Positions 8,250-37,886 are shown, counted from the first letter of the stretch. The stretch is DNA of 64,000 nt from a phage (GCA_014435945.1 GCA_014435945.1_4088.1); one strand, 5' to 3'. Program-made: numbers and translations. The notes: generated by a model from the sequence alone, not told the origin.

Positions 8250-9443
8250 CTATGATTGCCATAACTGCGTTGGCATTAATGTTAATGTTTTAATTACGGA
8301 AGTACCATCCGGTAAGTTACCACCTGAACCGTTAAAGCCCCCACATGCATATAATTTATAATCTTTAGTTATAATTATTGTTCTGGACCAGTCTTTGGAT
8401 GCCATAAGAACATTGTCATATCCACCCTGTATCGCACTTAAAGAAAACGCCCCCCACGAAGTAATTACTGTTGTATTTCCCGTCCCTTCTTGACCATATG
8501 TATTGATGCCTGCACTCCTGACATATGATGGGTATTGAGCCATAGGTGCACCAATTGTTGAGTTACCCATATTACTAGGACACAGGAAACCATCACTAAT
8601 ATTCACTATAACCTGTGAATTCTGAACTGTAGTTAATTGGTTTGTAGTTGAAGTAGTACCATTCCCAGCTTGTCCAGAATTGTTTCTACCACTCCAGTAC
8701 ACCCTACCGGCAGTGAACCACCAGGTAACATCATAAGTAGCACTTATATAATCGACGTTGGATCGTATTAATTTATTAGTAAAAACGTATGAGCTAGTCC
8801 CACCACCACTTTCACCAAAGTTATCCTTACCACAAAACCATGCTTCTTTATTTGTTTTGAGATAGTGCGTACCCTGTAATGAACACGCCAATTGAGAAAC
8901 TTCACCCATACCAGTAACAACTGTTAGTACTGGAATGGAATTTTGGTTACCTGTTCCACATTCGGCATTTGCATTTTTACCACAAACAACTACTCTTCCA
9001 TCGTGTAGTAATATTCTAGTACTTTCACCTATATGTACACTCTTGATTAAATTAGCGTGTACATTTATTTTGTTAAATGCGGCAGTAACATCAGTCCATG
9101 TTCTAAAATAACCATTAACTGGAGTTGCATCTCCATAATCGGGGAATGCTACAGTATTCCCTGTGAAATATATTCTATTATCCAAGTCAATCATCAATGA
9201 GCCATGAACGCCTAACCAAAAGGCTGCACAGTGCGTTGCCAGTACTGTAAAAGTAGAAACTGTCGATTGATTCCCTAGACCTAATTGGCTCAAGTTATTA
9301 CCACCATAACCGTATAGTGTATTCGTGGGCTTATGTAGATACATAGCATTAGTATAATGTTGCTGTAAAACATCAGTGAACTCAACTGGATCAGGAATAG
9401 GCAGTTTATTCCCGTATTTAACCATTCTTGCAAAAGGTAACAT
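8250..9443 (-). CDS. RCC1-like beta-propeller repeat protein, array member
   Basis: 397 aa; N-term MLPFARMVKYGN. Confidence 0.75.
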   Translation of the reverse strand: MLPFARMVKYGNKLPIPDPVEFTDVLQQHYTNAMYLHKPTNTLYGYGGNNLSQLGLGNQSTVSTFTVLATHCAAFWLGVHGSLMIDLDNRIYFTGNTVAFPDYGDATPVNGYFRTWTDVTAAFNKINVHANLIKSVHIGESTRILLHDGRVVVCGKNANAECGTGNQNSIPVLTVVTGMGEVSQLACSLQGTHYLKTNKEAWFCGKDNFGESGGGTSSYVFTNKLIRSNVDYISATYDVTWWFTAGRVYWSGRNNSGQAGNGTTSTTNQLTTVQNSQVIVNISDGFLCPSNMGNSTIGAPMAQYPSYVRSAGINTYGQEGTGNTTVITSWGAFSLSAIQGGYDNVLMASKDWSRTIIITKDYKLYACGGFNGSGGNLPDGTSVIKTLTLMPTQLWQS

Positions 9444-17122: not shown

Positions 17123-17410
17123 GTAATCATATGTAGTCATAAGTAATCATATATAAACATTTAAGTAATCATTTATAATCACAGTAGTGATCAGTAGTGA
17201 GTACTAGAGTGTAATAGAGTGTAATAGAGTACAGGAATGTGCACGTTTAATCAAGAACGTAGCAGTACTGCCCCAAAAGTATTCAGTACTGAAGGTGTCG
17301 ATATGCCACTAAGTAGGCAGAGGAAGTCTGCCGTACTTTGTAGTTTCCAAGCTCCTTTTCCATTTTGCAAATTACATCAAATGTAATCAAAAGTAATCAC
17401 GCAATGATTA
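17123..17410. repeat. Cluster of short direct repeats (GTAATCA units; AGTGTAATAGAG x2; AGTAGTGA x2)
   Basis: Read directly; non-coding. Confidence 0.5.
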
Positions 17411-17676
17411 GTACTGAATTATTACTTTCACCTTAATTACAATTACCCTTTTACCCTTCGGGGTAAAATTCCATTACCCCTTGAGGCTCCAGCAAAAAGT
17501 TGGTTAGTACTCCATCCTAAATCTCGATCCTAAAAATTTTGGAGTACCTATGAAATAAAAGTTGGATCTTCGAAAGTTGAAATTTACGTTGGGACGTTTA
17601 TGATTTGTGGGATATAATGATGTTTGTAGTCGGGTAGTTCTCAAGAATATCAGTACTGAATGGTGAAAGAAAGTTA

Positions 17677-17704
17677 TTGACATTATGATTCAGTACTGTA
17701 TAAT
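17677..17704 (+). promoter_or_regulatory. Orphan sigma70-like promoter (TTGACA-N16-TATAAT) with no downstream ORF
   Basis: Downstream about 100 nt contains two CCUCCU tracts; candidate small RNA. Confidence 0.4.
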
Positions 17705-18105
17705 GTTCTACATAGAGAGATGAGTTGCTGCGAACAATTCATTTACTCTACCTCCTGTCGTGAGACAGTACAGAAAAGATAGTTCCTCCTATTGGTGGTG
17801 CATCTTTTTGAACCTCATATGAAAATCGTAATAACAGTACTGATATTAACAGAATGGTATTAGTACTGATTTTAATCTAAAGCATTATGCCACCAGCTTG
17901 TGCTGGTGGATTCCCTCTAACAGTATTCAGTACTACATGATGGTCTTCATCCTCCTAGGGTAACATAGTGAGGGCTATGATGGCAGTACTGAATACTCCT
18001 TTCACAAGATAGATCTATGGTATAGTACTGACGGATTTTGGGCGTAGTTACCCTGGGTGGATTTTGGACGTAGATATGTCTAGCCCTCCAGAAGTCTGGA
18101 AGTAA

Positions 18106-18222
18106 AGATGGCTATCCATCTAGACGGCTAAACGGCTAGATTTCTAGATGGCTGTATGGCTAGACGTTTGGACGGCTAAACGGCTAGATGGTTACACGTC
18201 TGGATGTATAGACGGCTAAATC
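18106..18222. repeat. Iteron-like direct repeats (ACGGCTAAACGGCTAGA / GGCTAGA units) followed by AT-rich tract
   Basis: gacggctaaacggctagat occurs twice, plus related tagatggct/tagacg units; candidate origin or packaging site. Confidence 0.5.
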
Positions 18223-19005
18223 AAAATTTTTATTTTGTTTTTTCCAATAGTTCCCCTACCGCGTGGGGATAGTTTCCCCGCAGTATCTGGAGTTAGATTT
18301 TTCTGAATCTGGAATCATTATCCCCGTTTTAGCCTGGTATGTCAACCGCCTGGATGAATATTTTTAAAAAATAATCTAGTACTGAATTTTGGGCGTAACT
18401 ATGCACCCGGTGGGCTTGAGTCTTTCTCGACTTGATGGAACTATTATACAGTACTGGAAAAATAAAGCAATACCCTGGAAGCAAAAAAGTTTTAATTAAT
18501 TTGCTTGCTATCCTGGGCCGGACTATGGTACTATATTTCAGTACTGAGAAAGTGCGTTTACCTGCTAGGGTGCGGGAGTGTATCCTTTTTAAATTTACTG
18601 AATTTTGGGCGTAATTCCGCACCCCCAGGGGTATCCGCTTTCTCGCGTCTATGTAGTAATTATACGCTTTTTCGGTGCTGAGTCAATAGCTAAAAACAAA
18701 ATAATTGAAAATAATTTAACGCGTTTAAACGGCCCGTAAAGCCCTGGTTAGCTGGTGGCGGTGCAAATGTATAGCTTAGGTGTATTAATGCGTTAGAATG
18801 CGATTGAGGACGTTTTACGGGGTATAGTACTGATTCAGTACTGAAAGATTGTTCTCCCTGGATTGTTCCAGTACTCCTATATAGAAAGAAAACTATTTTA
18901 AAAGTATTTGTAGAAAGTACTTGCAAAGTATTGGGAAAGGTGTAGAATGTTTTACATCGAGACGGGGGATACGCTCCCGACTCACTTTTAAAAGAGATTA
19001 AAACG

Positions 19006-19368
19006 ATGGCGACTCAAATCAATACTATCATGCTTAACCTGGTTTCTTTCCGTGAAGAGATGAAAGATCTTCCCGCTGAGACTGTACGGATTCACATTGC
19101 AGCTTATCGGGAATTGATTGCAATGCTGCCGCTTAAGCGTGAACAGTACGCCGCTACTGCAATGCTGGACGCAATGATACATAAGATGATCCAGACTGAT
19201 TTAACGATGGCTTATCAGTACATGGGCGAAATGTTTGCAGTGTATAGCAAGCCAGTACCAGGAATGGAAAGTACAGAAGTATTACACGGCTTAAACTTAA
19301 AACAAGATGCATGGGATAATATGCCTCGTTTCCTGGTATGGGCTGATAGTGGAAAGATTTACGAATAA
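19006..19368 (+). CDS. hypothetical protein
   Basis: 120 aa; upstream TTGCAA..TAGAAT promoter and leader hairpin. Confidence 0.6.
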   Translation: MATQINTIMLNLVSFREEMKDLPAETVRIHIAAYRELIAMLPLKREQYAATAMLDAMIHKMIQTDLTMAYQYMGEMFAVYSKPVPGMESTEVLHGLNLKQDAWDNMPRFLVWADSGKIYE

Positions 19369-19382
19369 GTTTTTAAAAGTAC

Positions 19383-19410
19383 TTGCAAAGTAAGTTTAAA
19401 GGCGTATAAT
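19383..19410 (+). promoter_or_regulatory. sigma70-like promoter (TTGCAA-N16-TATAAT), class I
   Basis: Consensus repeated before many early genes. Confidence 0.6.
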
Positions 19411-19422
19411 ACTTTACATCAG

Positions 19423-19441
19423 GTGGGGAATAGTTCCCCAC
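19423..19441 (+). promoter_or_regulatory. Conserved 5' leader hairpin GTGGGGAA-tag-TTCCCCAC
   Basis: About 12 nt after -10 box; same motif downstream of about 30 promoters. Confidence 0.55.
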
Positions 19442-19461
19442 TATATAAGAGGATTAAAAAA

Positions 19462-19701
19462 ATGGCTAAATCAAAAATGTTCTTAGGTCACAAAAACAAA
19501 ACTCAATGGAATGTAAGCCTTTGGATTAATAACGACGAATCATTATACCGGTTGGCCCAGGACTTTATTGCCGCTAACACTAATCGTAATGATGCGGCCC
19601 GTCATATGATGCTATTTTTAGAACAGACTGGACAAGATAAAACGCCGGACGGCTTTAAGTATAGCACTACTGCGATCCGTGCGGCGATGGTTGGAATGTA
19701 A
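19462..19701 (+). CDS. hypothetical protein; paralog of 21854-22093
   Basis: Start moved to ATG 19462 (MAKSKMF); shared C-term TPDGFKYSTTAIRAAMVGM. Confidence 0.6.
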   Translation: MAKSKMFLGHKNKTQWNVSLWINNDESLYRLAQDFIAANTNRNDAARHMMLFLEQTGQDKTPDGFKYSTTAIRAAMVGM

Positions 19702-19784
19702 TAGAATATATTAAAAGTACTATTGCACGGTGATAGTACTTTATAATAGTGTTTTATTCATACACCAACGATAAGGGTAACAGC

Positions 19785-20051
19785 ATGAATATTATATATT
19801 TTGCGACGCGTGAACAAGCTCGGATCGCCGCACGCCAGGACGGGGCGACGTTTAAAGATATGGGCGTACAATCGGAACGTGGTAAACGTTGGGCCATTGT
19901 AAAGCGTAGTACCGCCAGATCATTACAGTACTGGTTAGCGGCCTTAAAAAGACCCGATAGTGTATCGCGACGAGTGGTAGAAATAAAGCTCGACCGAAAG
20001 GGCAACCGCGTGACCGTGTACCGTACTAAAAAGATTGCAGTACTTGAATAA
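19785..20051 (+). CDS. hypothetical protein; paralog of 32976-33380
   Basis: Start moved to ATG 19785 (track start is GTG); shared FATREQARI and DRKGNRVTVY. Confidence 0.58.
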   Translation: MNIIYFATREQARIAARQDGATFKDMGVQSERGKRWAIVKRSTARSLQYWLAALKRPDSVSRRVVEIKLDRKGNRVTVYRTKKIAVLE

Positions 20052-20058
20052 AAAGTAC

Positions 20059-20086
20059 TTGCAAACTAAGTTTAAAAGCGTATAAT
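20059..20086 (+). promoter_or_regulatory. sigma70-like promoter, class I
   Basis: TTGCAA 20059-20064, TATAAT 20081-20086. Confidence 0.6.
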
Positions 20087-20100
20087 GTTTTACATCGAGA

Positions 20101-20117
20101 GCGGGAATAGTTCCCGC
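20101..20117 (+). promoter_or_regulatory. Conserved 5' leader hairpin GCGGGAA-tag-TTCCCGC
   Basis: Inverted repeat read directly. Confidence 0.55.
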
Positions 20118-20138
20118 CTATAACCTGGAGTAATAAAA

Positions 20139-20369
20139 ATGACTAATATGTATATGACTGAAGTTAAAACCGTAAAAGATACTACCACTAATAAAACTAC
20201 TTACTTACAGCGGATCTGTGGTGTATGGCAACGTATCAGAAAATCAAAGTACTTTAAATTAACATCATATGCAAACCGTTCGGATTCATTCAGTACTGAA
20301 ATAAAAGGTAATAAAGTACACCAATACGGCACTTATTATTATTATAGCCTGGACGCGATTGCAGTATAA
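20139..20369 (+). CDS. hypothetical protein
   Basis: 76 aa ORF after promoter and hairpin. Confidence 0.55.
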   Translation: MTNMYMTEVKTVKDTTTNKTTYLQRICGVWQRIRKSKYFKLTSYANRSDSFSTEIKGNKVHQYGTYYYYSLDAIAV

Positions 20370-20654
20370 GCAGTTTACAAATCTTTACAATTGCCAGTAT
20401 TGACTTATTTTGTCAGTACTGGCATAATGTATTCATTGGCAGATAAGCCGTAGCCCATAGGGTGCGGAAGTGTATCTATAGAAAAAGTAGTTTAGTACAG
20501 TTACAATTGTGCACCCGGTGGGTTAGCTGTTGTCATGGGGTATATTATACCAGTACTGGATAGTGCTGTCAATACTTTTTTTACTATTCAGTACTGAAAA
20601 ACTATTTGATAAAAAGTACTTGCAAACTATGTTTAAAGGCGTATAATGTTTTAC

Positions 20655-20730
20655 ATCAGGACGGGGAACGAAATAAGTAACTTCCCGTTAAGTAGCCCAG
20701 GAGTAAGGCACACGAAAAACTCCCCTGATA
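20655..20730 (+). ncRNA. Conserved ~75-nt structured leader element, copy 1 of 3
   Basis: ggacggggaacg...aagtag...cgaaaaactcccctgat recurs at 24012-24090 and 31788-31870. Confidence 0.35.
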
Positions 20731-20797
20731 AAATAGTTTGACAATTGTTTTTAAAAGCGTATAATACTTACATAAACTACTGAATGAGGGTTACAAA

Positions 20798-21409
20798 ATG
20801 AAAACTATCACTACTACTACTTATGTTATGGATTTTTCTGAATTGAACGCAGAACAAAAAACGTCAGCTATCGAACTAGTTCGGGAACGTGAAAAAAACT
20901 CAAACGACGATTATTTTTCTGAAAGTGAAATTGAACACTATAAAGAAACAGTATTGCCGGAATATGGCATTAATGACGCTGAAATACAATTCAGTGGTTT
21001 TTGGTCCCAGGGTGACGGTGCATCAATCAGTACTGACCACGTTGACGCAGTGAAGTTTTTACGCAAGGTAAGAGCATTAACTAAGTATCGCTCAATCCGT
21101 CACCTGCTGAATGAAGATGATTTGGCGATGAGTGTAAAGCGTTCGCACTCCCACTACTCGCATGAGAATACTGTAAGCGGGTACATTGAATCGGCTTACA
21201 CTGATTTAACCGCAAAACAAGAAACGTTAGTTAATGAGCTTGAGGAACTACTCACTGACACTATTCGTGAATTATCCCGCAAGTTGTACCGTGATTTAGA
21301 GAATGCATATGAGGATCAATTCACTACTGAAAACATTACGGCACTGATTGAGGGTAACGAATATCAATTCAATGTTATTGATGGCGTAGTAGAATCAATC
21401 GAATATTAA
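20798..21409 (+). CDS. hypothetical protein (203 aa, acidic)
   Basis: ORF with own TATAAT promoter (20740-20790). Confidence 0.6.
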   Translation: MKTITTTTYVMDFSELNAEQKTSAIELVREREKNSNDDYFSESEIEHYKETVLPEYGINDAEIQFSGFWSQGDGASISTDHVDAVKFLRKVRALTKYRSIRHLLNEDDLAMSVKRSHSHYSHENTVSGYIESAYTDLTAKQETLVNELEELLTDTIRELSRKLYRDLENAYEDQFTTENITALIEGNEYQFNVIDGVVESIEY

Positions 21410-21421
21410 TTTAAAAAGTAC

Positions 21422-21449
21422 TTGCAAACTAAGTTTAAAGGCGTATAAT
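21422..21449 (+). promoter_or_regulatory. sigma70-like promoter, class I
   Basis: TTGCAA-N16-TATAAT. Confidence 0.6.
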
Positions 21450-21462
21450 ACTTTATATCGAG

Positions 21463-21481
21463 GCGGGGAGTGGTTCCCCGC
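21463..21481 (+). promoter_or_regulatory. Conserved 5' leader hairpin GCGGGGA-gtggt-TCCCCGC
   Basis: Inverted repeat. Confidence 0.55.
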
Positions 21482-21502
21482 TCATACTAAAAGGGTAACA
21501 AA

Positions 21503-21769
21503 ATGAAAACTTTAAATATCACAACTGCACATCAATTGGTTCGGGATGCGATGGATCATGTGCAAGATTTCTTCCCTGATGTAAGTGTAGTGACTTATGA
21601 AAAAGGTACTTGGACTTATTCAACAATTAACGGTTATGAGCCTGATTTTGATGATCTGGAAGAAATGGAATTTAATTTTGATCTGCTGAATGATGCCGCC
21701 CGTGAAGTGGGAAACGATGTTCAATACATTGATGGAGTAGTCGCACCTGATGCCGTAAAAGGATTATAA
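21503..21769 (+). CDS. hypothetical protein
   Basis: 88 aa; SD AAAGGG. Confidence 0.6.
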   Translation: MKTLNITTAHQLVRDAMDHVQDFFPDVSVVTYEKGTWTYSTINGYEPDFDDLEEMEFNFDLLNDAAREVGNDVQYIDGVVAPDAVKGL

Positions 21770-21775
21770 AAGTAC

Positions 21776-21803
21776 TTGCAAACTAAGTTTAAAGGCGTAT
21801 AAT
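21776..21803 (+). promoter_or_regulatory. sigma70-like promoter, class I
   Basis: TTGCAA-N16-TATAAT. Confidence 0.6.
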
Positions 21804-21816
21804 ACTTTATATCGAG

Positions 21817-21835
21817 GCGGGGAGTGGTTCCCCGC
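21817..21835 (+). promoter_or_regulatory. Conserved 5' leader hairpin
   Basis: GCGGGGA-gtggt-TCCCCGC, identical to 21463 copy. Confidence 0.55.
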
Positions 21836-21853
21836 TCAAACGAGGATTAAAAA

Positions 21854-22093
21854 ATGGCTAGTACTAAAACTTACAACGGGCACAAAAACAAAACTCATTG
21901 GAATGTTTCCTTATGGATTAATAACGGTGAGTCATTGTATCGGCTTGCTCAAAGTTGCATCGCACAAAGTAGAACTAAAGATATTGCTGCGGAATGTATG
22001 TACCGCAGATTAAAAGCCAACGGTACTACTACAACGCCGGACGGATTCAAGTATAGCACTACGGCGATCCGTGCTGCAATGGTTGGAATGTAA
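21854..22093 (+). CDS. hypothetical protein; paralog of 19462-19701
   Basis: 79 aa; HKNKTHWNVSLWINNGESLYRLAQ shared. Confidence 0.6.
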   Translation: MASTKTYNGHKNKTHWNVSLWINNGESLYRLAQSCIAQSRTKDIAAECMYRRLKANGTTTTPDGFKYSTTAIRAAMVGM

Positions 22094-22151
22094 TATTCAG
22101 TACTGTAACAATGGCGGGGAATGGTTCCCGCCTTTATTGAGGGTTTATCTA

Positions 22152-22412
22152 ATGAGTAAAGTAATTAACTATACAGTACTAAGCAAGTCATTATCTATTA
22201 GCCAGTGCACCGATGGTTATTGGTTTTATGATGAAACGCGTGGAATGAATTTAGCTATGCGTGCAAAAACTGCTGAGGCGGCGTATCTTGAGGCACTGGA
22301 ATACTACCAGGAACGTTTAACGGAAGTAGAAGAAGATTATAAAAGCCTCAAAGCGAAAGTAGATCATTTCGTCGGTCAATTCATCGAGGAAGACGCCGAC
22401 AAACAATATTGA
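22152..22412 (+). CDS. hypothetical protein
   Basis: Start moved to ATG 22152 (MSKVINY) after leader hairpin. Confidence 0.55.
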   Translation: MSKVINYTVLSKSLSISQCTDGYWFYDETRGMNLAMRAKTAEAAYLEALEYYQERLTEVEEDYKSLKAKVDHFVGQFIEEDADKQY

Positions 22413-22498
22413 AAAAGTACTTGCAATTAGTTTTCAGTACTGTATAATGGTTTACATCAAAGGGAGAAATGGTTCTCCCTGGTAATGAGGAAAATAAA

Positions 22499-22720
22499 AT
22501 GGCTAATATCACTACTCTTTCCCAACTGGAAGCACTGGTTAAATCTATGCGGGAACATGCCGACAAAATCGGCGTACAAGATCCAGCCGTTTGCTTCTGC
22601 GACGAATTGAATGATGATACCCTGGTAATAGCAGAAGTCCAGGACGTTTCTAACTATTCCTCGCGTTACACTGGCGGCGTAGCAAATAAAGGTGACTTCT
22701 GTTTATACCTTACAAAATAA
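22499..22720 (+). CDS. hypothetical protein
   Basis: Start moved to ATG 22499 (MANITTL). Confidence 0.58.
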   Translation: MANITTLSQLEALVKSMREHADKIGVQDPAVCFCDELNDDTLVIAEVQDVSNYSSRYTGGVANKGDFCLYLTK

Positions 22721-22963
22721 CAACGCGGGGAGATAATAACTCCCCGTTACTTTTTCAGTACTGAATCATTTAATAGACGGATCTCGGCACCCGGTGGGTT
22801 AGTGACTGTTTCGTCTTGATGTAGTAATTATGCCAGTACTGGATGCACTTGTCAACAATTATTTTCCAAATACTTTTTATTAAAATACTTGCTATTAGTT
22901 TTTAAACGCGTATAATGTTTTGCATAGGGGGAGCGGTTCCCCTGGTAACTAAGGAATAAGAAA

Positions 22964-23200
22964 ATGGTCGAACAAATCAAATCAACGTCTTCGAATGTAA
23001 CGGGAACGGTAGCACACTTTACTAGTGATGAATCGCGGGGCGTTCCCTATTGTGCTGTACATGTAAACACTGAGGGTAACTACTGGTTTACGGTTTACGG
23101 ATCATATTCATTTGGACGGCCAGGGCATCAAAAAATTCTGGATAAAGTACAACCAACGGGTAAAAATATCACTGCCGAAATGTTTTATAAAAAATCATAA
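22964..23200 (+). CDS. hypothetical protein
   Basis: 78 aa; promoter and hairpin upstream. Confidence 0.58.
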   Translation: MVEQIKSTSSNVTGTVAHFTSDESRGVPYCAVHVNTEGNYWFTVYGSYSFGRPGHQKILDKVQPTGKNITAEMFYKKS

Positions 23201-23284
23201 AGTACTTGCAATTAGTTTTTAGTACTGTATAATATTTTACATCGCAAGGGGAAACGGTTTCCCCTGGTAACTAAGGATAATCAA

Positions 23285-23584
23285 ATGAAAGTAGCAATCA
23301 TCGCCCTGGCTTTATCTGTTTCCTCTTTCGCTGTTAATGCGTCGTTAGATGTACCTGGTGATAAATTCATTCAGTGCACCGTAGCAATGACAGATGAAAG
23401 TACTGGCGAGATTGTATTAAAGGATTTAGAGATCCAGCCGGAAGCATTTAAAAACGGCCCGTTCCATGAAGAAGACGAAAACGGTAGCACAACAATTTAT
23501 TATGATGCCAGTACTAAACGTGGTTCTGTCACTGTAATGGATACGGAGAAAGTAACTCACACCGGAGTAATTAACTGTTTATAA
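23285..23584 (+). CDS. hypothetical secreted protein
   Basis: N-term MKVAIIALALSVSSFAVNAS looks like a signal peptide. Confidence 0.6.
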   Translation: MKVAIIALALSVSSFAVNASLDVPGDKFIQCTVAMTDESTGEIVLKDLEIQPEAFKNGPFHEEDENGSTTIYYDASTKRGSVTVMDTEKVTHTGVINCL

Positions 23585-23666
23585 TAGTTTGACTATGTAT
23601 TACAGTACTGTATAATAGATACATAAGGGGCGAATAGTTTGCCCCTGGCATAAAGGGGAAAACATT

Positions 23667-23897
23667 ATGACAGCACGAATTGTTTTACTTAACGCTGGAA
23701 GTACTACACAACTCCTTAACGCCGTGCATTATGATATTGAAACGAGCGTTAATCTTATCAGTACTGTAGTACTATTGGACACTGGAAAGGTCGCCAATGA
23801 TAAAGCGATTGCAGGTATACTAACTGATCTCAAGCCTGGTAGCAGTACGCCAATAACGTTAAATGGCAAAGTGTTTAATATTTTACTTACTGATTAA
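23667..23897 (+). CDS. hypothetical protein
   Basis: 76 aa; SD AAGGGGA. Confidence 0.55.
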   Translation: MTARIVLLNAGSTTQLLNAVHYDIETSVNLISTVVLLDTGKVANDKAIAGILTDLKPGSSTPITLNGKVFNILLTD

Positions 23898-23903
23898 GTA
23901 CAT

Positions 23904-23930
23904 AGCCCACCTGGTGGGCTTTTTTGTTTT
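23904..23930 (+). terminator. Intrinsic terminator
   Basis: GCCCACC-tg-GTGGGC followed by TTTTTTGTTTTT. Confidence 0.65.
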
Positions 23931-24011
23931 TGTAGTATCGTAGTACTGAGATACTTTAAAAATAGTTTTAAAAAAGTAGTTGACATTACCACAAAAAGGC
24001 GTAGAATGTAT

Positions 24012-24090
24012 TACATCAAGACGGGGAGCACTAAGTAGACCGCCAGTAAGTCGAACGAAAAACTGGACACGTCGAGAAAACTTTGATACA
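24012..24090 (+). ncRNA. Conserved structured leader element, copy 2
   Basis: caagacggggagcactaagtag...cgaaaaact; between promoter and gene 24131. Confidence 0.35.
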
Positions 24091-24130
24091 CTAATAAACG
24101 TAAACTAAACTTTAATTGAGGATTTATAAA

Positions 24131-24613
24131 ATGGCTAATGTAAAATCATTCATCAAAGCACTGGTAGCAAATGAAACTAACGTCGCGGCAGAGATCCTGG
24201 CTGAACTGGATAACGATACCATGAAAGCGGTACGCAATAATTTTAACATCGCGTACAGTACTGCGAAAGAACTACAAGCAAATAAAGCGGCAGAAATTGA
24301 AGCGGCAAAGGCGGCCCGTGAAGCAGAACTACAAGCAACAATCGAAAGTATTCAGGCGGCAGTAGTTGGATTGGATCTGGAAGTAGTTACAGAGATGGCA
24401 CAAAAAGCCCTGGCGGTTAAGTATGGGGAAGACAAGCCAGAAGTAAAAGCCAAAAAATGGATTCAGGAACGCGTAGCGGTAGTACTGGACAACGGGGAAG
24501 AATATCTGATTCCGGTGCGTGGTAACTGCATTGCGGTAGTACTGGATGCGATTAACTCCAGTGGTATGACTCGCGAGGAATGGATCGAAGCTCATCGCAA
24601 AGTTGAAGCATAA
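24131..24613 (+). CDS. hypothetical protein (Ala/Glu-rich, predicted helical)
   Basis: Start moved to ATG 24131 (track start is TTG); SD GAGGA. Confidence 0.58.
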   Translation: MANVKSFIKALVANETNVAAEILAELDNDTMKAVRNNFNIAYSTAKELQANKAAEIEAAKAAREAELQATIESIQAAVVGLDLEVVTEMAQKALAVKYGEDKPEVKAKKWIQERVAVVLDNGEEYLIPVRGNCIAVVLDAINSSGMTREEWIEAHRKVEA

Positions 24614-24634
24614 CAATTAAAGTACTGAATCACT

Positions 24635-24662
24635 AGCCCACCTTAAACGGTGGGCTTTTTTG
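24635..24662 (+). terminator. Intrinsic terminator
   Basis: AGCCCACC-ttaaac-GGTGGGCT followed by TTTTTTG. Confidence 0.65.
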
Positions 24663-24898
24663 TGTTTATCGTTTACCAGCTCCACATCACCGCCTAGAAA
24701 CGATTCTAACGCATTAAACTGATTATCTGATGCATTGCCCTAGCTGGTGGCGTTAAGGTCGTTGTAATGCGATTGAGAGCGTTTAAAGTATTTTGCAAAA
24801 AGTAATAAAAAGTACTTGCACGATTAAGAGATTAGCGTATAATGTTTTACATCGAGAGGGGGAAACGGTTCTCCTTCCAAATCAAAGGAATAAAAACA

Positions 24899-25126
24899 AT
24901 GGCTATTATCATTACTCGCGTATCTGGTACTACTGGCAACGAACAAGTAGTTGCAGTCATTACCAACAAGGAAGGTGCGGAATTGCAAAATGCAATGAAT
25001 ACCTGGGCCGTTAATGAGTTCGGTCAGTGGGCAAGTGTAGCATACATTGAAACCTATCAAGTGCCGTCGATTAGTTTAACTGATTTGGGCGTTGAGCGTA
25101 TCCTTTGCCTGGATGAATTAAATTAA
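24899..25126 (+). CDS. hypothetical protein
   Basis: Start moved to ATG 24899 (MAIIITRVSG). Confidence 0.58.
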   Translation: MAIIITRVSGTTGNEQVVAVITNKEGAELQNAMNTWAVNEFGQWASVAYIETYQVPSISLTDLGVERILCLDELN

Positions 25127-25212
25127 AAAAAGTACTTGCAAAGTAAATCGAATAAAGTATAATACATTACATCAAGGGGAGAAATGGTTCTCCCCACTAC
25201 AAGGAAACTAAA

Positions 25213-25356
25213 ATGAAAACTTGTCAATGTGGTCAGAAATCTATTACGGGTTTAAAGCGGGGCGTTGCTCTTTGCCAGTACCATTATAATTTACAAGTAT
25301 GGGGTAAAGAATGGGCCGACCAGGTGGAAGCAGCAAAGAAAGCAAAAAGTAAGTAA
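25213..25356 (+). CDS. small Cys-containing protein (47 aa)
   Basis: Hand-translated MKTCQCGQKSITGLKRGVALCQYHY...; promoter, hairpin and SD upstream. Confidence 0.45.
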   Translation: MKTCQCGQKSITGLKRGVALCQYHYNLQVWGKEWADQVEAAKKAKSK

Positions 25357-25420
25357 AAATATTATCACAGTACTATTGACATAGTTTGATAGTACTGGCA
25401 TAATAGATTTTATCAAGACA
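25349..25420 (+). repeat. 72-bp promoter cassette, copy 1 (exact duplicate of 25641-25712)
   Basis: gtaagtaaaaatattatcacagtactattgacatagtttgatagtactggcataatagattttatcaagaca. Confidence 0.6.
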
Positions 25421-25435
25421 ACTGAGGAAAATAAA

Positions 25436-25648
25436 ATGGCTATCATCACTAAAATCAAAGTTAACAAATCACTGGTTAAGCTGGAAGAAGTGAAAGAAGG
25501 TTATAAAGTATCTTGGTGCGGCATGTATCGGATATTCACTGATATTGATGACGCAATCAATTATTACAGCGACACGGTTAAAAACTTTGTTCGTGCTGAT
25601 GTGGTTATGGCAGTGGCAACGCACAAAGCAGCGAAAGAAAGTAAGTAA
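25436..25648 (+). CDS. hypothetical protein
   Basis: 70 aa; MAIITKIKV. Confidence 0.58.
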   Translation: MAIITKIKVNKSLVKLEEVKEGYKVSWCGMYRIFTDIDDAINYYSDTVKNFVRADVVMAVATHKAAKESK

Positions 25649-25712
25649 AAATATTATCACAGTACTATTGACATAGTTTGATAGTACTGGCATAATAGAT
25701 TTTATCAAGACA
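25641..25712 (+). repeat. 72-bp promoter cassette, copy 2
   Basis: Identical to 25349-25420; includes last codons (KSK/ESK-stop) of upstream gene. Confidence 0.6.
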
Positions 25713-25737
25713 ACATATTAATTTAAGGAATACAAAA

Positions 25738-26061
25738 ATGGCTAAAACTATCATTAACACCGTTTCCCTGGCTGCAATCCGTGCAATCAATGTTGACGGT
25801 AAACGTTGGACTGATTCATATGGCAATACTTATCATTCTTGTCATGTAAGCGTTGAACTGGATAACGGTTTGAATGATCTGGCGGTTGAATCATTTACTT
25901 ATGGCTATGAAGATGCATATCAACAAACGGCGTTATCTCTCTTAAAGGAATCAGTAGACGGGCTTAATACTGATGAAACCTCCCTTACTCGTGTGTGCAA
26001 TGATCTTAATATCCCGTTGCATTGTACTGTACAGAATGTTAAACGCAAAAAAGATCTTTAA
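25738..26061 (+). CDS. hypothetical protein; paralog of 32566-32889
   Basis: Shared RWTDS[YH]GNTYHSC, FTYGY and C-term VKRKKD. Confidence 0.6.
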   Translation: MAKTIINTVSLAAIRAINVDGKRWTDSYGNTYHSCHVSVELDNGLNDLAVESFTYGYEDAYQQTALSLLKESVDGLNTDETSLTRVCNDLNIPLHCTVQNVKRKKDL

Positions 26062-26141
26062 TTAGCTTTACTTTATGCAGATACTTTGATATAGTGTCTG
26101 CATAGGGGAAAGAAATTAAATTAACTTAAGAGGATCGTATA

Positions 26142-26411
26142 ATGAAAAATATCAGTACTTTAATCGATGCAGGTACTCATGTTCGTCGGTCTATGGTTGC
26201 AACCAGTACTACAAAACAAGTAGCGAGCGGTTATCTTGTATTTGTGCACGATGGTAAACTCCTGGAACGTTCAATCAATTTTGATGTTAAAAACAATTGC
26301 CGTTTTATTATCTTTAAGCGTGAGCAATATAAAATTGATTTACCAGCAAAGCCCATTAGTGGGGCGTACAACGTGCAATCATTGTTTGAACGTCAACCAT
26401 ACACCTATTAA
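26142..26411 (+). CDS. hypothetical protein
   Basis: 89 aa; SD AAGAGGA. Confidence 0.55.
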   Translation: MKNISTLIDAGTHVRRSMVATSTTKQVASGYLVFVHDGKLLERSINFDVKNNCRFIIFKREQYKIDLPAKPISGAYNVQSLFERQPYTY

Positions 26412-26462
26412 TCAAAACATCGTTAGCGGTCGATTCAGGCCGCTTATATTGGGGATTATACC

Positions 26463-26735
26463 ATGAACGTTAATCAAGTACTGAATGAGATCGAAAGCAT
26501 CATTAAACCGATGAAGCGTACTGATGCTATGTTAACACCGGAAGAATGCCGCCTTTATGAGCGTTACAGCGTCGAACAAGTCCAGGCAATGGCTATGGCT
26601 ACCCCAGCCGTTAAACCGCCTGAGAATGCGTTACAGGACGTTACAGGGGATTATATCATCAATCCAGTACTAGGGAAGATGGCTGCAATCACCGAAGATC
26701 AACAAGACTACTTAAGCCAGTACTTAAAAGGTTAA
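26463..26735 (+). CDS. hypothetical protein
   Basis: 90 aa. Confidence 0.55.
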   Translation: MNVNQVLNEIESIIKPMKRTDAMLTPEECRLYERYSVEQVQAMAMATPAVKPPENALQDVTGDYIINPVLGKMAAITEDQQDYLSQYLKG

Positions 26736-26740
26736 TTAAT

Positions 26741-26950
26741 ATGCTTACTGTACAGGATAAGATCGACATCTTAAAGGTTAATATGTATGTGATTGATGCC
26801 GTACCTGGTAAAGTATTTGCATACGATGACACTACTGTAAGCGATTTCTACTATAGCCAGGCCGTGGGGGATCTTTCTGTACAGTCGGTTATTGAAAACG
26901 TAGTTAATGCAGCGTATGAGCATTTACTTTCAAATAGTACTTGCAATTAG
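26741..26950 (+). CDS. hypothetical protein
   Basis: 69 aa; close-coupled to upstream gene. Confidence 0.5.
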   Translation: MLTVQDKIDILKVNMYVIDAVPGKVFAYDDTTVSDFYYSQAVGDLSVQSVIENVVNAAYEHLLSNSTCN

Positions 26951-27019
26951 TTTTTAAACGCGTATAATGTTTTACATGAAGGGGAGAAATGATTCTCCCC
27001 ACTAATTAAGGAATATGAA

Positions 27020-27166
27020 ATGAAAGCATCAAAAAAGAGTACTAACAAGAAAGCACGTTCAACCTTAGATGGGGTATTCCCTTTACGTTTTGTTGATGAA
27101 GTAGTTTCCTACCCGCCGGGCCTTACTCCTGAGATGGTAGAAAGTTTGCGTAAATCTAAAAAATAG
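27020..27166 (+). CDS. small basic protein (48 aa)
   Basis: Hand-translated MKASKKSTNKKARS...; promoter and hairpin upstream. Confidence 0.45.
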   Translation: MKASKKSTNKKARSTLDGVFPLRFVDEVVSYPPGLTPEMVESLRKSKK

Positions 27167-27248
27167 TACTTGCAATTAGTTTTTAGTACTGTATAATAGT
27201 TTACATGAAGGGGAAAACGTTCCCCTTACACCTAACGAGGAAAGTATA

Positions 27249-27500
27249 ATGGAAACAATTTTAATCAAAGACACTGCTACTACTGTAACTTATGATAATG
27301 ATTGCATTATCCCAGGGACTGAGTACGGCGAACGTGTACCCGTTCAAGTAGAGATTGATACCACATACATCGACAAGGCTGACCAGTGTATCACTATTGT
27401 AATTGGTGAATATCGTTTTCTACCAGAAGAGATCCAAAAATGGCAGAATATGATTGACCGTGCGAAATTAGTCGCACAAAGTTTAAAATACAAAGTTTAA
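27249..27500 (+). CDS. hypothetical protein
   Basis: 83 aa; SD AACGAGGAAAG. Confidence 0.58.
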   Translation: METILIKDTATTVTYDNDCIIPGTEYGERVPVQVEIDTTYIDKADQCITIVIGEYRFLPEEIQKWQNMIDRAKLVAQSLKYKV

Positions 27501-27586
27501 AATAATACTTGCAATTAGTTTTTAAACGCGTATAATGTTTTACATGAAGGGGAGAAATGATTCTCCCCAATAACAGGAGAAACAAA

Positions 27587-27739
27587 ATGAAACAATACAA
27601 CGCTCGGTTTGATGTTACTATCGGTAACGGCAAAGGTCAATTCTCTTTCAGTACTCGCAAAAGTTATACAGAAAACTTCCTGCGTAATTGTGCACTGACC
27701 GCCGCACAAATTAAACATTACTTTCAGGCTAAAAAATGA
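27587..27739 (+). CDS. hypothetical protein
   Basis: Start moved to ATG 27587 (MKQYNARF). Confidence 0.55.
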   Translation: MKQYNARFDVTIGNGKGQFSFSTRKSYTENFLRNCALTAAQIKHYFQAKK

Positions 27740-27825
27740 AATCATTAGCTTATTACAGTTCGGCCCTGGTCGGTGCATTGATCGCGGCATTGTTAGTAAC
27801 CTATCTATTCTTTATGGTGATTTAA
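27736..27825 (+). CDS. small hydrophobic peptide (29 aa, single predicted TM helix)
   Basis: ATGA overlap with upstream stop; MKSLAYYSSALVGALIAALLVTYLFFMVI. Confidence 0.4.
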   Translation: MKSLAYYSSALVGALIAALLVTYLFFMVI

Positions 27826-27969
27826 ATGAATCCAACAGGCTTAAATTATAAAAGTTGTTCGGCGTTTACGAAAGCAAATAAAGCGAATGCACGTAAAGCG
27901 AAAGTACAGGAATACATCAAGCAAGGCATGACGCGAAAGGCGGCGATTCTAAAAGCTAAAAATAAATGA
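27826..27969 (+). CDS. small basic protein (47 aa)
   Basis: Starts directly after upstream stop; Lys/Ala-rich. Confidence 0.4.
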   Translation: MNPTGLNYKSCSAFTKANKANARKAKVQEYIKQGMTRKAAILKAKNK

Positions 27970-28000
27970 AAAAAGTGGTTGACTCCGGTCAGCCATTTTG
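27970..28000 (+). terminator. Terminator-like hairpin (A-run, GTGGTTGAC..GTCAGCCAT, T-run) at start of repeat module
   Basis: Same module at 31633, 34899 and 37657. Confidence 0.45.
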
Positions 28001-28179
28001 CTATTATATATTCATTGAGAGATAGCTCACTAGCCCACAGGGTGCATAAGTGTATCTATTATATAAGTATTGAGTACTGAAAACTATTTTTAAAAAGTAC
28101 TTGCAAACTATCTCAATAAGCGTATAATGTTTTACATCGCAAGGGGAAATGGTTTCCCCTGGTAATAAGGAAACGAATC

Positions 28180-37682: not shown

Positions 37683-37886
37683 GCTATTATATACGCATAG
37701 ACAAAAACTAGCCCACAGGGTGCATAAGTGTATCCAAAATATATAGTTAATAACGGTGAGTAACTATCTGCTGGTGGAGTGAAAACTATTAATAAAAAAA
37801 AGTATTGACAAAGTATATCAGTACTGCAATAATGTATCTCGTAGGGCGGCAATGGTGCGACGGCCCACAAAGTTAGGAGATTCAAA

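Follow-up and report, generated by a model that had tools for sequence, protein, structure and literature searches.

Promoter-early stem-loop (PeSL) cassettes of T4-like phages (Arbiol 2010, PMC2839356; Comeau 2014, PMC4122927) are close to the repeated intergenic element described here, since both join a terminator-like stem-loop (A-run, G-rich stem, T-run) to a sigma70-like early promoter with an N17 spacer, and both recur in the intergenic spaces of a plastic early region of small ORFs. The two differ in that the PeSL promoter lies downstream of the stem-loop, whereas the -35 hexamer of the element lies inside it (a hairpin present in 4/11 copies here and 46/108 in the family), and in that PeSLs end in a Shine-Dalgarno (SD) sequence and start codon while the element continues into a conserved ~50-nt RNA module. 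The nut sites (boxA + boxB) of lambda and the put sites of HK022 are likewise promoter-proximal, transcribed and set in a terminator-filled phage early region, and combine a short hairpin with a free stem sequence and purine-rich loop and a box that is linear and conserved; in the element, however, the hairpin precedes the box, the loops are hexaloops rather than pentaloops, and behind many copies there is nothing to antiterminate. The ops/JUMPstart element read by RfaH is also a 12-nt, orientation-specific and near-invariant 5'-leader box of Enterobacterales with a tiny hairpin and a ...T-G end, but the position of the RfaH-read T6 is a C in half of our copies. Set against a classical trans-acting sRNA gene, the element always has a promoter, yet a strict terminator comes first in only 9/110 copies and no mini-ORF is conserved. 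Finally, the related jumbo phage PA5oct has an early, highly transcribed terminal repeat with two abundant non-coding RNAs (PMC7318152), although these share no sequence or motif similarity with the element.

The DNA analysed is a 64,000-nt stretch (hereafter the window) of a 121Q/PBECO4-like jumbo coliphage (GCA_014435945.1) with 90-96% identity to Asteriusvirus phages such as 121Q, PBECO4, CMSTMSU and fEgEco12. PhageTerm and restriction mapping have defined a direct terminal repeat of 20,993 bp in fEgEco12 (PMC13070987). Position 1 of fEgEco12 aligns with window position 17312 and the end of its repeat projects to ~39134; because that repeat is mapped and the region homologous, we place the terminal repeat of the window at ~17312-39134. 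Within it, 17312-19005 is non-coding, and from 19006 to ~39 kb single small + strand ORFs each have their own promoter, with terminators and promoters dense across the early region and tightly packed genes beyond. A search of the window found no tRNA or tmRNA. A sequence-only reading had described here a dispersed module, in which a terminator-like hairpin doubles as a promoter and is followed by a conserved core, and had leaned towards a protein-binding or recombination site, with short RNAs from the embedded promoter as the alternative. Herein we describe the element as a previously undescribed family of ~50-nt RNA modules limited to the terminal repeat of Rak2/121Q-like phages, whose copies are probably transcribed at the 5' ends of immediate-early transcripts.

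Repetition and distribution of the element

Counting motifs confirmed the repetition of the core: CCCAYAGGGTGC, allowing at most one mismatch, occurs nine times against 0.17 expected in 64 kb, on both strands (Table 1). The reverse cores that had been reported at about 18400, 20515 and 22790 were recovered at 18403, 20511 and 22787, as was the forward core near 20450 (at 20454), while the one given as ~29690 is really at 29701. A profile followed by a covariance model revealed in addition a convergent pair of divergent copies that had been overlooked. With filters off, the covariance model returned 11 copies at E <= 0.025 and no other match in the 64 kb, and 11/11 lie inside the terminal repeat.

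Table 1 Coordinates of the terminal repeat, the element copies, the parts of the 27970 locus and a gene downstream of the element in related phages.
Feature	Coordinates	Strand	Details
Direct terminal repeat (immediate-early region)	17312-39134, ~21.8 kb	.	Homology to fEgEco12
Copy towards left genome end	18387-18470; core 18403-18414; -35 18470-18465; -10 18448-18443	-	29 bits
Divergent copy, left of convergent pair	18505-18588; core CCTGCTAGGGTGC 18561-18573	+	3' hairpin + T-run scores as terminator
Divergent copy, right of convergent pair	18604-18686; core CCCCTGGGGGTGC 18619-18631	-	45 nt between cores
Copy, left of convergent pair	20400-20480; core 20454-20465	+	Covariance model, promoter
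Short-type copy without P1, right of convergent pair	20496-20572; core 20511-20522	-	45-nt spacer
Anti-gene copy	22712-22855; core 22787-22798	-	Reads into bidirectional terminator 22726-22746
27970 locus: small ORF, 47 aa	27826-27969	+	ORF; stop codon 27967-27969, 2 nt before hairpin
27970 locus: terminator-like hairpin AAAGTGGTTGAC-TCCG-GTCAGCCATTTT, A-run + T-run, holds -35	27972-27999	+	12 pairs; -16.9 kcal/mol, z -5.36
27970 locus: element promoter	27979-28007; -35 TTGACT 27979-27984; -10 TATTAT 28002-28007	+	17-nt spacer, TGc
27970 locus: predicted transcript start, A	~28014		Predicted
27970 locus: P1 hairpin UGAG-AGAUAG-CUCA	28016-28029	+	4-bp covarying stem, purine-rich hexaloop
27970 locus: near-invariant 12-nt box CCCACAGGGTGC	28034-28045	+	CCC/GGG mini-hairpin, 3-nt loop
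27970 locus: 3' segment ATAAGTGTATCTATT	28046-28060	+	Family consensus RGARNU-N-YRUCYAU; can pair with GGGUG
27970 locus: second, generic gene promoter	28101-28128	+	TTGCAA-16-TATAAT
Copy with TTGACA...CCAGTACTGGCATAAT promoter	29644-29727; core 29701-29712	+	Covariance model, promoter
Short-type copy, -35 inside hairpin	31630-31713; core 31687-31698	+	Covariance model, promoter, fold
Copy, -35 inside hairpin	34896-34984; core 34958-34969	+	Top covariance-model score, 64.9 bits
Short-type copy, -35 inside hairpin; last before repeat end	37655-37738; core 37712-37723	+	Covariance model, promoter, fold
172-178-aa gene (three related phages)	L047 2122-2643; L085 5481-5996; L038 12666-13196	- (L085)	

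The element turned up in 68 records when IMG/VR was scanned with patterns and 50,697 phage records were searched by BLAST; all 68 are of 337-386 kb, and the 108 distinct copies all derive from phages of this size that infect Enterobacterales (Escherichia, Klebsiella, Salmonella, Erwinia, Yersinia, Pectobacterium, Cronobacter and Serratia). Five phage records labelled with the host Campylobacter jejuni match the coliphage region at >=80% identity, which looks like mislabelling or contamination of those records. Copies cluster in one ~20 kb region per genome, annotated as terminal repeat for CBB, Muenster and fENko-Kae01, and their positions are retained in fEgEco12 and 121Q. The element was absent from 185,579 bacterial and archaeal species (one genome each), apart from three chance matches in unrelated metagenome-assembled genomes, and from the terminal repeat of PA5oct. 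Rfam returned no match at gathering score, left the elements unmatched at E <= 5 and gave no support for pistol or hammerhead ribozymes. The literature searched on these phages nowhere describes the box, and mentions only predicted RpoD-like promoters with UP elements (PMC5259590).

The CRISPR I-E or I-F repeats, as in RNA anti-CRISPRs, bear a poor resemblance to the element; the CsrA site RUACARGGAUGU is partly similar, with GGA where the box has GGG; and the Tus-Ter sequence TGTAACTA fits the 20511 and 29701 copies only. A ribosomal RNA target was rejected, as E. coli rrnB holds no good complement to the main box variants: the only 12-pair match is between 23S and a minor CCCACCGGGUGC variant and needs four G-U pairs, and 16S holds AGGGUGC at 539 in the same sense.

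The terminal repeat carries several other repeated features. Twelve Chi sites GCTGGTGG (0.5 expected) lie at 17890-37777 of the window, 12/12 inside the repeat; the + strand carries 11 of them, oriented to act on RecBCD that comes in from the right; the lone - strand site (17890-17897), ~580 bp inside the left end, is set against entry from that side, and a palindrome at 17888-17910 bears Chi on both strands. Chi was not found in the terminal repeat of the Pseudomonas relative PA5oct. The sites suggest that Chi may protect the phage DNA ends. The hexamer AGTACT occurs 270 times in the whole window against ~22 expected from base composition and is densest at 12-40 kb, with 10-21 per 2 kb at 12-38 kb, zero in 5/7 of the 2-kb bins at 40-54 kb and nine in the other two; this excess is likewise absent from the PA5oct repeat. 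Many occurrences have the form CAGTACTG, or AAGTACTTGC joined to the -35 of a gene promoter; the hexamer often lies near the centre of convergent element pairs, and may be a protein-binding palindrome or part of promoter architecture. A second repeated module of ~85 nt without an ORF (ACAUCAGGACGGGGAACGAAA.AAGUAAC..CCGUUAAGUAG.CCAGGAGUAAG.CA.ACGAAAAACUCCCCUGAUAAAAUAG) follows a generic promoter at 20653-20736 and 31787-31870, has a third promoter, TTGACAAT..TATAAT, immediately 3' of it, and may be another small RNA. In the left-terminal 1.7 kb of non-coding DNA (17312-19005), a box-less RNA would start from a perfect promoter (17677-17704, TTGACA-16-TATAAT), degenerate ggctaaacggctagat-type repeats run in tandem from ~18100 to 18215, and a decayed element remnant lies at ~18040-18062 (-) beside three element copies. 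Lastly, a promoter-leader block (TTGACAtagtttgatAGTACTGGCATAAT + ATCAAGACAAC) is duplicated at 25340-25440 and 25630-25740 before two small genes; it has an element-type promoter and no box, and its weak Rfam mir-1000 matches were set aside as chance.

A dedicated promoter, a covarying hairpin and a near-invariant box

A sigma70-type promoter precedes the core on its own strand at a fixed distance in 11/11 window copies, in both orientations, and in 109/114 nhmmer matches across related phages. The spacer is 17 nt in 8/11 copies and a TGn extended -10 is found in 9/11, and the distance from the end of the -10 to the box is 21 nt in short-type and 25-28 nt in long-type copies. A conserved cAT supplies the A at which transcription is predicted to begin, at about 18436, 18652, 20435, 20537, 22820, 28014, 29679, 31672, 34938 and 37697 in the window. 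Generic gene promoters in this region are of another kind, having TTGCAA or TTGACA, a 16-nt spacer and TATAAT without the TG. At the 27970 locus, AGTACT stands twice before the generic promoter (28073-28078 and 28096-28101), and a 5'UTR hairpin (28143-28159) and a gene (28180-28521) come after it.

Element promoters come in two flavours, with the -35 either buried in a terminator hairpin or part of a TTGACA...CCAGTACTGGCATAAT promoter. The TTGACT-N17-TATTAT promoter that had been reported at four sites was borne out at 27979, 31637, 34903 and 37662. The four hairpins around it were said to be alike, which holds for GGGATTGACTCCGGTCAGTCCC at 31633, 34899 and 37658 (0 expected), while that at 27970 is a compensated variant, GTGGTTGAC-TCCG-GTCAGCCAT. 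All four have 12-bp G+C-rich stems and a T-run (-16.9 to -19.5 kcal/mol, z -5.4 to -6.5), start 3-16 nt past the stop codon of the upstream ORF and have the form of predicted intrinsic terminators. The doubling of terminator hairpin and -35 thus describes 4/11 copies here and, with many different outer stems, 46/108 in the family, and not the rest.

Downstream of the promoter, the module consists of a 4-bp hairpin (P1), a 3-5 nt linker with UAR just before the box, the 12-nt box and a RGARNU-N-YRUCYAU tail. P1 was found in 86/110 copies and is missing from 24/110; in long-type copies its 4-bp stem carries a GCGAAA, GAGAAA or AGAUAA hexaloop and lies 2-4 nt from the predicted start. In an ungapped alignment of 29 copies, picked by loop motif and linker length with pairing ignored, its four pairs are 100% paired, each showing 3-5 pair types and 14-17 changes that affect both sides; covariation scored 0.62, and shuffled alignments 0.16 +/- 0.03 (0/500 shuffles reach the observed value), and slid controls collapse. 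Pairing is 92% over the 108 distinct copies, in a covariance-model alignment that leans towards the model. A per-sequence shuffle test is uninformative for stems of 3-5 bp and was replaced by the pair counts and a chimera test, which gave a mean real stem of 3.86 bp against 3.42 +/- 0.09. The compensatory pairing therefore shows that there is a single-stranded hairpin between start site and box on the promoter strand. Together with the own-strand promoters, this covarying hairpin supports the earlier suggestion of short RNAs from the embedded promoter. The argument that occurrence in both orientations favours a protein-binding or recombination site in DNA fails, since it is the whole promoter-plus-element unit that is inverted.

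Nine of the 12 box positions are invariant in 110 copies, two others vary in one or two copies and the last is C in 101, an invariance that arises partly by construction, since most copies were collected with patterns fixing CCCA and GGGTG. Two loop positions are more variable. With the core left free, an nhmmer profile search retrieved variants with intact CCC and GGG arms around a 4-nt loop; nhmmer and covariance-model searches yielded only minor box variants, and one divergent window copy has a 5-nt loop and CC instead of CCC. The arms stay constant while their spacing shifts by 1-2 nt, which suits a mini-hairpin more than a site read as rigid duplex. Beside the box, the sequences of promoter, hairpin stem and tail differ between copies. 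Tail changes at positions 13, 14 and 17 (first G of GGG = 0) are transitions only and keep the pairing with GGGUG through G-U wobble, so that its five pairs are 94-100% paired, all changes being one-sided; this pairing works only as RNA of the promoter strand. The CCC/GGG hairpin and the GGGUG/tail helix share GGG and are mutually exclusive, neither has two-sided covariation, and ViennaRNA prefers the former in 73/108 copies and the latter in 14/108. Thermodynamically the module RNAs are ordinary (z -0.1 to -2.2).

Three further features were considered and rejected. A pseudoknot between loop and UAUCU tail fits, on inspection, only AGAUAA loops, as the tail is unchanged with GCGAAA loops and shows no covariation; a closing helix, 5' AUAGA/UCUAU, holds in the short type and clashes with P1 elsewhere, with no mutual-information signal between 5' and 3' sides; and a mini-ORF after the box is not conserved, NUG being in place in only 48/110 copies.

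Orientation, downstream context and breakpoints

Copies point against the coding strand in 43/110 cases (39%). The first feature downstream of the 110 copies is a convergent copy in 39, a second promoter (usually with a gene next) in 29, an SD-ATG match in 17 and a strict terminator pattern in 9, and most co-oriented copies have no terminator and read into the second promoter and gene. Several lone anti-gene copies run into the bidirectional terminator of the upstream gene, 36-40 nt past the tail; that of the 22787-22798 copy has a weaker T-run and was missed by the strict pattern, and the predicted stand-alone RNA would be ~100 nt, from 22820 to ~22712 (-). Convergent copies form 24 distinct pairs, and the stretch between the boxes, though unrelated in sequence, measures exactly 45 nt in 18 pairs, 56 nt in two and 63 nt in four. 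In the 20454/20511 pair the segment between the predicted starts (20435-20537) forms a single long hairpin when folded (-38 kcal/mol, z -4.7). The fixed spacing is accounted for by none of the current explanations.

A gene starts within ~50 nt of the box in just three copies (phages L047, L085 and L038). The gene behind these copies is conserved, encodes 172-178 aa and has a short-type element directly 5' with no second promoter. Its product has a Gly/Arg/Ser-rich N-terminus (MPGQFRSKSGATLAGHS...GQGSRGSRNQG) and no Pfam match, and homologues also occur in GAP32, CBB and a Yersinia phage; the gene is not in the window.

The view that elements mark recombination breakpoints between related genomes found no support in a comparison with fEgEco12, the closest relative with a reliable chained alignment and the one genome pair examined: 0/11 indel or replacement breakpoints fall within 100 nt of an element, the nearest being 370 nt away, and for 10/11 a generic gene promoter is 60 nt away or less (p ~1e-4). 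Generic promoters and their 5'UTR hairpins (e.g. 28101-28159) are repeated at ~85-92% identity between cassettes over 19000-37300 of the window.

Candidate roles of the probable early RNAs

We favour, at roughly even chances, a multi-copy, trans-acting and factor-binding family of early RNAs, whose co-oriented copies would double as leaders. It is the best single reading because the box hardly varies, copies are many and face either way, and some units stand alone and run into terminators. From a strong promoter, in most copies with TGn and a 17-nt spacer, host sigma70 RNA polymerase would transcribe each unit; in some copies this promoter is fused to an upstream terminator, so that one gene would end and the next transcript start within 40 bp. 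The functional module would be the first ~50 nt, comprising P1 (GNGAAA or AGAUAA loop), linker, box CCCAYAGGGUGC and tail, and its output a ~100-nt stand-alone RNA, a convergent RNA pair with the 45-nt box gap, or a gene 5' leader. Their place in the terminal repeat would put the units among the earliest transcripts of the phage. From this arrangement we infer transcription of the units, a partner and action in trans: box and hairpin would form a binding platform for one conserved partner, most likely a host or phage protein, and the abundant early RNAs would act mainly as decoy or regulator, with co-oriented copies also acting in cis. Several observations weigh against such a family. Most co-oriented copies run on without a terminator, the RNAs are not unusually stable, the mutually exclusive box helices lack two-sided covariation, and the invariant 12-mer is equally readable on DNA, e.g. 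the non-template strand. A candidate partner was not found: none of the 53 repeat ORFs has a convincing arginine-rich motif (a weak test), and Pfam searches of 10 proteins gave only a DksA/TraR zinc finger and a weak kinase match.

The strongest competitor, which we nevertheless consider rather unlikely, is a signal close to the promoter that acts in cis to modify polymerase during elongation, as lambda nut, HK022 put and ops/RfaH do, where hairpin and box, in nascent RNA or non-template strand, load a factor for read-through of early terminators into delayed-early operons. The constant position of the element, always 21-28 nt past the -10, fits this, as do the boxB-like P1 with its short free-sequence stem and purine-rich, GNRA-like loop, and the density of terminators and promoters in the region. 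Co-oriented copies precede terminators, and beyond the last one (37712) come long operons in which promoter density is at background level; the 172-178-aa gene has some copies directly as its 5' leader, and by eye RCCCAYAGGGUG matches ops GGCGGTAGCGTG at up to 8/12 positions in register, including the ...T-G pause end. Such a signal has little to do, however, in the 39% of copies that are anti-gene and the ~40% in convergent pairs without a downstream gene; P1 is missing in 24/110 copies, and no arginine-rich N-like ORF stands out. Neither consensus is present: boxA, (C/T)GCTCTT(A/T)A, has one chance match in the window, outside the repeat, and ops GGCGGTAGYNTG is absent from the leaders, with one 1-mismatch chance match at 8700, also outside the repeat.

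An improbable alternative is that the elements work at the DNA level as PeSL-like recombination cassettes, with the terminator/promoter blocks supplying homology for gene-cassette shuffling and the box carried as a passenger. The composite terminator/promoter does resemble PeSLs (PMC4122927), and close relatives differ by indels across what is a mosaic of single-gene cassettes. The breakpoint feature of PeSLs is nevertheless found here at the generic gene promoters and not at the elements, and therefore PeSL-type shuffling seems to use generic promoter repeats. The PeSL 3' end is also lacking, as an SD-ATG comes first in only 17/110 copies and a gene start lies near the box in only three; the anti-gene copies are a further difference, element positions are kept in fEgEco12 and 121Q, and shuffling leaves the invariant box, the covarying hairpin and the fixed 45-nt pair spacing unexplained.

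If anything a shade less probable are R-loop replication origins of the T4 type, which combine a promoter with an unwinding element. Here the G-cluster of the box would anchor the transcript, a hybrid in A+T-rich DNA would prime the leading strand, and convergent pairs would give bidirectional starts. The phage group is T4-related, the module has the order promoter, GC-rich box and A+T-rich tail, and convergent pairs lie near the repeat start (~1.25 kb in for the window, ~1 kb in for CBB), but 10-20 copies per repeat are many for origins, and anchoring needs neither an invariant 12-mer nor a covarying 5' hairpin. Least probable of all is an ordinary early promoter with a neutral leader, alike only through recent duplication or gene conversion: a TTGACA...AGTACTGGCATAAT promoter with ATCAAGAC start does drive box-less genes at 25376 and 25668, but the box is kept in 108 copies across genera that share only 33-38% of their proteins (PMC5259590), and stems, loops, tails and promoters diverge while the box stays and compensatory changes keep the hairpin.

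More specifically, though only as a tentative and on balance doubtful proposal, hairpin and CCCAYAGGGUGC could be a new recognition signal of giant Enterobacterales phages, either an elongation or antitermination loading site or a decoy RNA, with convergent pairs, at their fixed 45-nt gap, giving defined collision products or ~100-nt hairpin or double-stranded RNAs. If true, it would be an analogue of nut and ops that marks immediate-early transcripts, or a decoy delivered in 10-20 copies by the first DNA to enter the cell. The family predicts mappable transcripts, a partner to pull down and testable mutations, including compensatory ones. The terminator/promoter cassette logic of T4-like phages extends to the Rak2/121Q-like group, where it is fused to an RNA module, and phages that infect eight host genera share the 12-nt box and its link to dedicated strong promoters of the terminal repeat. 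Rak2/121Q-like jumbo phages are widely isolated and have been proposed for therapy, and the box would offer a handle on the first minutes of their infection.
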